Virus record (IMG/VR): IMGVR_UViG_2698536369_000016
Direction: 5' to 3' (one strand)
Length of the DNA: 5,095 nt
Origin: a virus
Lineage: Duplodnaviria > Heunggongvirae > Uroviricota > Caudoviricetes
Under the pieces are notes generated by a model. That model was not told where the DNA came from. It was given only the letters and a program-made list of their open reading frames with translations, and did not search any database. Both the position numbers and the translations under genes were made by a program. Positions 4,102-4,788 of this stretch are shown here, one piece after another. Each line of letters begins with the position of its first letter. The first letter of the stretch is position 1.

Positions 4102-4218
4102 GGGGATTTATCGATTTCTAATCCCTTGATATGTTAGGTATATAATCCAACACTCATGGTCGCTCTCATAAACATATCCCTTGAGACGCAGCAGATTACA
4201 ACAAATGAAGCCATATAA

Positions 4219-4533
4219 ATGAACAGTAAAGAAAGTTTGCGCAGAAGATTTTTACAACTAATGACAGAAAACGTTAAATCAGAGTTACTTCTTCTGATGG
4301 CAGATAATAACGAAGCAACAAGCAGCATTCTTGCAGACCCTTACGGTAAGATCTCACATAAAACGCTGGATATTATTACCACAACATTAACACCGCTGAT
4401 GCTTCAACGGCTGAAACATAATATCAACGCATGGGTTAATGAAGAATTAAGTCCTCCCTGCTTATGGGATTCTCGTTACGCATGTCAGCAAAAAATGCGA
4501 ATTTTCAACTTACTATCACCAAAGCTCAGGTAG
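4219..4533 (+). CDS. hypothetical protein (104 aa), orphan ORF antisense to the lysis operon
   Basis: ATG-initiated ORF, MNSKESLRRRFLQLMTENVKSELLLLMADNNEATSSILADPYGKISHKTL..., in an AT-rich 687-bp insert between S and R. A TATAAT hexamer lies at 4141-4146; the Shine-Dalgarno is weak. No family recognised. The minus strand here has no ORF longer than about 15 codons apart from one unsupported 64-aa ORF at 4134-4328. Confidence 0.35.
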   Translation: MNSKESLRRRFLQLMTENVKSELLLLMADNNEATSSILADPYGKISHKTLDIITTTLTPLMLQRLKHNINAWVNEELSPPCLWDSRYACQQKMRIFNLLSPKLR

Positions 4534-4788
4534 CCATAAAATCCTGCCCTTCATGGCATACAGGATTTCAATGGAATCACAATGACCAACTCTTGCACAG
4601 CTGTATCCCTGACTCCCCGACAACTCAGATTTTCAGTATCTGCTGCTATCTAAAGAGAAAGCGCACAAATGCAAGGGTCTTTCATCACGTCCTGTTATTG
4701 ATTGCCTGTGACCTTTTCTTACCTCATGGAACGTTTTTTCAGTTAGAAATATTCATTTTACAACCAGTTCGTATTGTTTATTCATCGA

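Follow-up and report, generated by a model that had tools for sequence, protein, structure and literature searches.

Two questions are raised by the 687 bp that separate the holin and endolysin genes in IMG/VR record IMGVR_UViG_2698536369_000016: whether the open reading frame (ORF) lying there on the opposite strand is a gene and, if so, what kind of gene it is. The record, hereafter the window, is a 5,095-bp piece of a defective Escherichia coli lambdoid prophage. A preliminary description, made from the sequence alone, had presented the gap as a single insert of low guanine-plus-cytosine (GC) content with one substantial, unrecognised ORF of 104 amino acids (aa), either an orphan moron transcribed against the late transcript or a chance ORF in non-coding DNA. 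Morons are extra genes of phage late regions with their own promoter, a deviant composition, expression in the lysogen and a patchy distribution. The evidence presented here favors a moron: the gap was probably once an accessory region of two genes in a lambdoid lysis cassette and has since decayed, with the ORF as its surviving, autonomous gene. The entity itself is already catalogued (ECs_1097, phrog_1853) and of a familiar class. New here are the assignment of its start codon and of its promoter and transcription start site, the proof of coding constraint, the recognition of an adjacent pseudogene, the picture of a swappable slot and the rejection of a model in which the two genes form a pair.

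Coding evidence for the ORF

The gap extends from 4102 to 4788, between the start of the endolysin gene R (4101) and the stop of the holin gene S (4789). Its GC content of 0.390 (0.384 within the ORF) is below that of the flanking genes R (0.545) and S (0.538). These values agree with the preliminary description, as do the coordinates of the ORF (4219-4533), its length, its ATG start and its orientation opposite to the lysis operon. The view of the ORF as an orphan that could be assigned to no family was overturned by a match of its protein to phrog_1853 (E=3.5e-47, residues 1-102 aligned to profile positions 57-158), a family also matched by gp06 of Stx2-converting phage 86 (E=8.4e-50). A search of 5.8 billion proteins recovered full-length relatives at 78-64% identity, and a profile search reached 43%. 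When 1.84 billion cluster representatives were searched exhaustively with a profile, 21 relatives were recovered in all, none linked to a named family; this added three full-length members (P0050, P0051 and P0059) of 105-107 aa at ~35-45% identity. A scan of one genome per species (GTDB) yielded zero relatives, and megablast of the gap against phage genomes gave no match, the Stx2-phage homologues surfacing only by tblastn. Judged by these searches, this is a real family of narrow range, with members almost exclusively from E. coli phages.

Conservation of the frame in related prophages had been proposed as a check, and among 87 fetched loci the frame was intact in every clade (104-107 aa), save for a few copies with C-terminal damage. 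Ratios of nonsynonymous to synonymous substitution (dN/dS, or omega; Nei-Gojobori estimates) ranged from 0.10 to 0.33 overall, with 0.10-0.14 in closer pairs, 0.19 at dS 0.57 for the window type versus locus L052, and 0.27 at dS 0.47 for the Stx2 phage 86 type versus the Stx2a 12E129 type. Substitutions were enriched at third codon positions. In a six-frame control, frame +0 alone was stop-free, and its omega was the lowest in each comparison; the mirror frame -1 contained 4-7 stops and looks partly constrained because its wobble positions are shared with the real frame. Relative to loci of the same architecture that are ~10% diverged overall, the ORF was 97-98% identical, compared with 87% for R, 90-92% for the upstream spacer, 92-94% for the downstream remnant described below and 74-87% for the holin gene. 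On this comparative evidence, ORF 4219-4533 is a genuine gene under purifying selection.

The ORF was also not unrecognised, since the Prokaryotic Genome Annotation Pipeline (PGAP) annotates 4261-4533 as a 90-aa protein beginning at Met15 (WP_000138558.1), and an entry for the exact 104-aa protein dates back to the EDL933 genome, where it is called 'unknown protein encoded within prophage CP-933O'. Residues 1-14 are conserved across clades, whereas Met15 gives way to Ile in Stx2-phage clades, indicating that the start lies at 4219 and not at the 4261 chosen by PGAP. A strong GAGGA precedes the first ATG in the Stx2-phage clades, and the predicted helix 1 of the protein comprises residues 3-26. 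The protein is identical to ECs_1097 of E. coli O157:H7 Sakai (prophage Sp4) and to EDL933_RS06280, both annotated as hypothetical, and the genes occur there in a like context (pchA, Rz/Rz1, R, ORF and S, with IS629 nearby). The RefSeq version of ECs_1097 differs in that it has 90 aa from Met15, as opposed to the 104-aa start backed by conservation. No paper mentioning ECs1097 or WP_000138558 was found in the literature.

Contrary to the first account, the ORF is not the only substantial one, as two more are found in the gap (Table 1), neither with coding constraint. Although close relatives keep the 120-aa ORF open, its substitutions show no preference for any codon position, and it had no family match. 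The 64-aa ORF, ECs1098, is a mirror-frame shadow whose frame is elsewhere broken by stops in ORF-wide alignments.

Transcription from a dedicated promoter

Transcription start sites of EDL933 have been mapped in triplicate by Cappable-seq in lysogeny broth (LB), minimal medium, LB with malic acid and LB with NaCl, each in exponential and stationary phase (PMC10469882). Across these 8 uninduced conditions (supplementary files 6-8, relative read score cutoff 1.5), a plus-strand start of EDL933_RS06280 was reported at 1272853 in 8/8 conditions with scores of 31-72, and a second start at 1272864 in 2/8 conditions (PMC10469882). Because positions 4102-4300 of the window (199 nt) are identical to the EDL933 copy, these starts map to 4142 (main) and 4153 (minor). 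The plus-strand transcript that had been named as a further check on the gene is thus on record.

The main start falls within the TATAAT hexamer noted in the preliminary description. The hexamer is indeed present at 4141-4146, but it is not the -10 element of the main promoter and fits only the minor start. The main start would be served by the extended -10 TGaTATGTT, which is composed of TATGTT at 4130-4135 and TG at 4127-4128. Most clades, the Stx2-phage types among them, share the GATATGT core (GATATAT in one clade), and TATAAT is conserved solely in the three clades nearest the window. A consensus promoter scan in which both hexamers were required found nothing for the ORF, as the -35 is weak. 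Wherever the flanks were readable (80+ loci), R and the ORF were 118-147 bp apart.

Weak minus-strand starts of EDL933 map to window positions 4185, 4197, 4377 and 4749 (PMC10469882). Two of them, upstream of R, carry a flag for probable degradation, a third is located in the partner remnant described below, and the last is antisense within the ORF, with scores of 2-4 in five conditions.

A decayed ydfR-like gene in the remainder of the gap

The insert had been treated as one unit. Sequence comparison indicates instead that the rest of the gap, 4534-4788 (~255 bp), is a pseudogene remnant of a second, ydfR-like gene on the lysis strand. The S-R gap of Stx2-converting phage 86 and of Stx2a phages holds two genes, a partner and the 104-aa gene. 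The intact partner (213-268 aa) lies on the lysis strand directly after S, and the 104-aa gene is convergent with it and overlaps its 3' end. Partner proteins are annotated as 'YdfR family' because some versions start with DUF1327. Remnants of both ends of the partner were located in the window (Table 1). The ten residues MNKQYELVVK are identical to the N-terminus of the DUF1327-type partner P0160, and tblastn aligned 4712-4581 at 36% identity (E=3.8e-4) with the Stx2a-phage partner over residues 143-186. Three-frame translation of the remnant placed ...RDTAVQEL... and ...YAMKGRI... in different frames. Ten identical residues together with a weak, frameshifted match to the C-terminal domain suffice to recognize a pseudogene remnant but are too little for a profile match. 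The stop after MNKQYELVVK is also found in the ~10%-diverged relatives L048 and L049, suggesting that the decay is old. The C-terminal domain of the partner had no Pfam match and no PDB relative, and the AlphaFold2 model of the partner was too poor for use (predicted local distance difference test score, pLDDT, of 45).

Positions 4382-4581, comprising the 3' half of the ORF and ~50 nt past its stop, showed 0-1 differences per 50 nt relative to the ~10%-diverged relatives, fewer than the 5' half of the ORF. Recent recombination over this patch might explain the low divergence, as might an additional constraint where ORF and partner once overlapped.

Predicted structure and proposed mode of action

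An AlphaFold2 model of the ORF protein, built on a 19-sequence alignment, contained five helices with a pLDDT of 88.6 and a predicted template modelling score (pTM) of 0.79. The family is hydrophilic, with isoelectric points (pI) of 5.2-9.6. The ORF protein had no Pfam or NCBIfam match, PADLOC-DB v2 defence profiles matched neither it nor its Stx2-phage homologue nor the partner proteins, and a profile search of the PDB returned nothing below E=0.07. From the model, the protein is predicted to be soluble and cytoplasmic, and it most likely acts by binding another macromolecule. Given the lack of a transmembrane segment and of any catalytic or DNA-binding signature, together with the range of pI, this is most likely another protein in the lysogen.

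Under the favored explanation, sigma-70 RNA polymerase would use the extended -10 independently of the Q-dependent late promoter, and the resulting mRNA, with a 77-nt leader, would be translated from the ATG at 4219 into the 104-aa cytoplasmic five-helix protein. The gene would then belong in one class with bor and lom as an accessory function expressed in the lysogen, and would not be a component of the lysis machinery. The best lead to its target may be the ancestral neighbor, that is, the ydfR-like late protein, or a process touched by that protein. According to a 2026 study, K-12 YdfR binds RNase E within its catalytic half and possibly also RNA, with which it co-purifies (PMC13232886), which is taken as a lead for the ancestral module and not as evidence on the ORF. 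A more specific proposal, and an improbable one, is that the protein serves as a lysogen-side guard of the lysis module, directed at the partner or at RNA decay, for example by neutralizing the ydfR-like late protein. If true, such a guard, widespread in enterohaemorrhagic E. coli (EHEC) beside pchA, could control the fate of late mRNA, spontaneous lysis or superinfecting phages.

Several observations weigh against an autonomous moron that acts by protein binding. The ORF protein has no structural or sequence relative that suggests a function, and the binding mode is derived from missing features and not from positive evidence. The -35 is poor and the promoter is assigned by position only. No intrinsic terminator was found on the plus strand in 3900-5000, so that one feature of classical morons is missing; the hairpin behind the ORF stop codon lacks a T-run and is of ordinary stability. 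If EDL933 harbors several copies of the region, as it may, the Cappable-seq reads are not assignable to a single one. Finally, the ribosome profiling (Ribo-seq) supplement for Sakai, which covers only shorter genes, contains no translation data for the ORF and lists from this region only the shadow ORF ECs1098.

Alternative explanations

The main alternative is that the ORF is one half of a dedicated module with the convergent ydfR-like protein, as an antagonist, immunity factor or chaperone acting on its C-terminal domain, and that the window holds the leftover. In every clade with intact context, ORF and partner converge and the ORF overlaps the 3' end of the partner, an arrangement that extends to ~37%-identical loci in which the pair is found upstream of a lambda-type holin and not between S and R, and to a position beside an HP1-type holin, and both partner ends are still present in the window. 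A reciprocal test was made on 76 viral-contig loci that encode the partner C-terminal domain and have room for the ORF. The ORF was absent from 65 of the 76, in most of which R follows the partner after 40-46 bp. Conversely, the ORF persists with no functional partner in the whole window clade (>620 genomes), where purifying selection has continued after partner decay, and in L052-type loci, whose copies adjoin a different holin and show no detectable partner remnant. ORF and partner do not consistently co-occur, and occurrence of each without the other indicates that the ORF is independent cargo and not half of an obligate pair. A dedicated module is accordingly considered unlikely.

It is less likely again that the transcript is the main product, with constitutive transcription from 4142 dampening leaky late or holin expression by antisense or interference effects and with coding secondary. 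The strong constitutive start, the lack of a plus-strand terminator between ORF and holin, and an orientation opposite to the lysis operon that is invariant in 80+ loci are all consistent with this proposal. The substitution pattern, however, reflects constraint at the protein level and not at the RNA level alone. In addition, the covariance models of Rfam 15 gave nothing in 4102-4788 at E<=1, and the folding of the leader and of the 3' region was not unusual (z-scores +0.28 and -0.22). RNA and protein functions of the locus are not mutually exclusive. The Pas small RNAs of pathogenic E. coli lie outside the gap, between the sialate esterase gene and the holin. A role of the ORF protein as a lysis regulator, either antiholin-like or controlling the endolysin, would explain why it is found strictly within, or next to, lysis cassettes with holins of three or more families, but its opposite strand, its own constitutive start, its soluble helical model and its negative hydropathy are not those of an antiholin or lysis regulator, making this role quite doubtful. 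Least credible is the reading that the frame stays open by chance, in DNA that is non-coding or in decay. The region is AT-rich, Pfam and NCBIfam gave no match and the surrounding prophage is degraded, yet the frame is intact across clades down to ~35-45% identity, with omega of 0.1-0.3, as the sole stop-free frame, and has both a PHROG family match and a mapped start site. Of the two readings originally offered, the chance ORF thus falls away, while the moron is supported by a gene that is conserved, patchily distributed, AT-rich and provided with its own promoter active in uninduced lysogens.

A swappable slot at the holin-endolysin junction

In some prophages, represented by locus L088, the position of the ORF directly upstream of R, on the opposite strand, is filled by an unrelated small gene (phrog_10490) accompanied by a short DUF1327-like ORF, which marks the junction as a hotspot for alternative cargo. 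The holin-endolysin junction is a swappable accessory-gene slot in P21-type lysis cassettes. In one distant locus (L085, 710-1210, minus strand), an HNH/AP2-domain gene lies between the ORF and the lambda-type holin as another insertion at the junction.

Distribution and relevance

Among 5,426 complete E. coli genomes, 631 contained the 687-bp gap, nearly all with an identity of at least 99%, and a more sensitive search with the ORF found 674 genomes. The Stx2-phage-86-type gene was found in 90 further genomes, including O104:H4 outbreak strains. The family thereby occurs in ~14% of complete E. coli genomes, among them O157:H7, O103:H2 and O104:H4 outbreak lineages. In O157 the ORF adjoins the virulence regulator gene pchA and is strongly transcribed in all laboratory conditions tested. 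If the protein affects prophage stability, lysis, release of Shiga-toxin phage or phage exclusion, it would be relevant to EHEC biology. The ORF is a well-supported candidate for functional work, although no surprise.

Genomic context of the fragment

The window ends in perfectly complementary 115-nt inverted arms (1-115 and 4981-5095), which are the outward-facing ends of IS3-family (IS629/IS1203-type) insertion sequence (IS) elements according to the annotation under sequence matches. At one end the large terminase gene is cut short by the arm, and at the other the holin gene has lost its first four codons to it; compared with a full-length copy, S is without MEKI and the IS arm starts at 4981. 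The element at the holin side removed everything upstream, severing the 4.9-kb inter-arm segment from the late promoter. Because the IS629-type element took the holin start and all that preceded it, the late transcript cannot reach the ORF in the window. The earlier statement that the ORF is transcribed against the late transcript holds for the strand and not, in this fragment, for the encounter.

Table 1. Coordinates of features in the window and, in the last two rows, in locus L088
Feature	Position	Strand	Remarks
Large terminase (truncated) and small terminase genes		minus	between arms
cosN	1461-1472	minus	exact lambda 12-mer GGGCGGCGACCT, just upstream of small terminase gene
YlcI/YnfO gene (DUF3950, phrog_949)	1680-1904	plus	between cos and pchA
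PerC-family gene	1986-2300	minus	100% identical to PchA (ECs_1091) of O157:H7 Sakai
Rz and Rz1		minus	lysis genes of the fragment
Small conserved ORF between R and Rz	3240-3386	minus	phrog_4493, E=1.3e-22
SAR-type endolysin R	3568-4101	minus	Pfam Phage_lysozyme, E=5.7e-23
Divergent intergenic region, R start codon to ORF start codon	4102-4218		holds ORF promoter(s) and 77-nt 5' leader; GC 0.376
Extended -10, TGaTATGTT	4127-4135	plus	7 nt upstream of start 4142; assignment inferred from position
Additional ORF, 64 aa	4134-4328	minus	older record: ECs1098
TATAAT hexamer	4141-4146	plus	fits as -10 of minor start 4153
Main transcription start site	4142	plus	Cappable-seq, 8/8 conditions
Protein-coding gene, 104 aa, phrog_1853 (ECs_1097 / EDL933_RS06280)	4219-4533	plus	ATG start
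Additional ORF, 120 aa	4464-4826	plus	older record: EDL933 gene '6285'
Frameshifted remnant of partner C-terminal domain (phrog_1085 type)	4516-4712	minus	end overlaps ORF 3' end, as in intact loci
Remnant of partner 5' end	4753-4785	minus	MNKQYELVVK then stop; tblastn to Stx2-phage-86 gp05 residues 1-12
P21-type class II holin S	4789-4980	minus	Pfam Phage_holin_2_1, E=1.5e-28; stop codon 4789-4791
L088: phrog_10490 gene	3123-3473	minus	
L088: short DUF1327-like ORF	2891-3118	plus	

The remaining features of the fragment are listed in Table 1. The R protein has a Gly/Ala-rich N-terminal segment resembling a signal-anchor-release (SAR) domain and an E-8-D-5-T motif, both read from the sequence. 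A matching order is annotated in Sakai prophage Sp4 (pchA, ECs_1091; R, ECs_1096; holin, ECs_1100) and likewise in EDL933. In both genomes, the segment pchA-Rz-R-ORF-S is inverted relative to the Q and terminase genes and lies between IS629 and ISEc8. PchA is a regulator of the locus of enterocyte effacement (LEE) virulence island, and its gene in the window is preceded by a very A-rich tract of low GC content (~2300-2500, GC 0.29). The YlcI/YnfO gene is also oriented opposite to the late operon and is possibly another antisense accessory gene of the fragment. The PGAP call for the small ORF that separates R from Rz is a hypothetical protein of 37 aa (WP_000675931.1 / ECs_1094) with a hydrophobic C-terminal half. 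Between this ORF and R lies a GC-rich hairpin, AAAACCCCG...CGGGGTTTT (3446-3490), which has T-runs on both strands and resembles a bidirectional intrinsic terminator within the lysis operon; it accounts for the only weak Rfam match of the window (rimP leader, E=0.8).

Comparison with known systems

The genes flanking the gap are of the type of the phage 21 pinholin and SAR-endolysin cassette (S21/R21). The canonical phage 21 cassette has nothing between S and R, whereas in the window this junction is used for accessory-gene insertion. Close counterparts of the ORF are gp06 (orf6) of Stx2 phage 86 and its equivalent in the Stx2a phages of strain 12E129, which are 104-aa phrog_1853 members between S and R in the same orientation as in the window. 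They differ in having only 49-53% identity to the ORF and an intact ydfR-like partner between S and the gene; in these phages, TATAAT is absent and the GATATGT core is kept. The phrog_10490 gene of L088 is similar in size and in occupying a like slot on the strand opposite R, but is unrelated to the ORF in sequence (hhalign probability 0.5%).

YdfR of the K-12 Qin prophage, a DUF1327 protein, is encoded between holin and lysozyme on the lysis strand, as was the decayed gene. It is the remnant and not the ORF that resembles YdfR, and only 10 codons of the DUF1327 domain survive in the window. K-12 YdfR (103 aa) is also without the C-terminal domain that the partner family has. Classical lambdoid morons such as the lambda genes bor and lom offer a further comparison. 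Both genes encode envelope proteins with known roles, in contrast to the predicted cytoplasmic location of the ORF protein, and the ORF further departs from classical morons in that no terminator of its own was found. With bor and lom it shares patchy presence, its own lysogen-active promoter and a deviant GC content.
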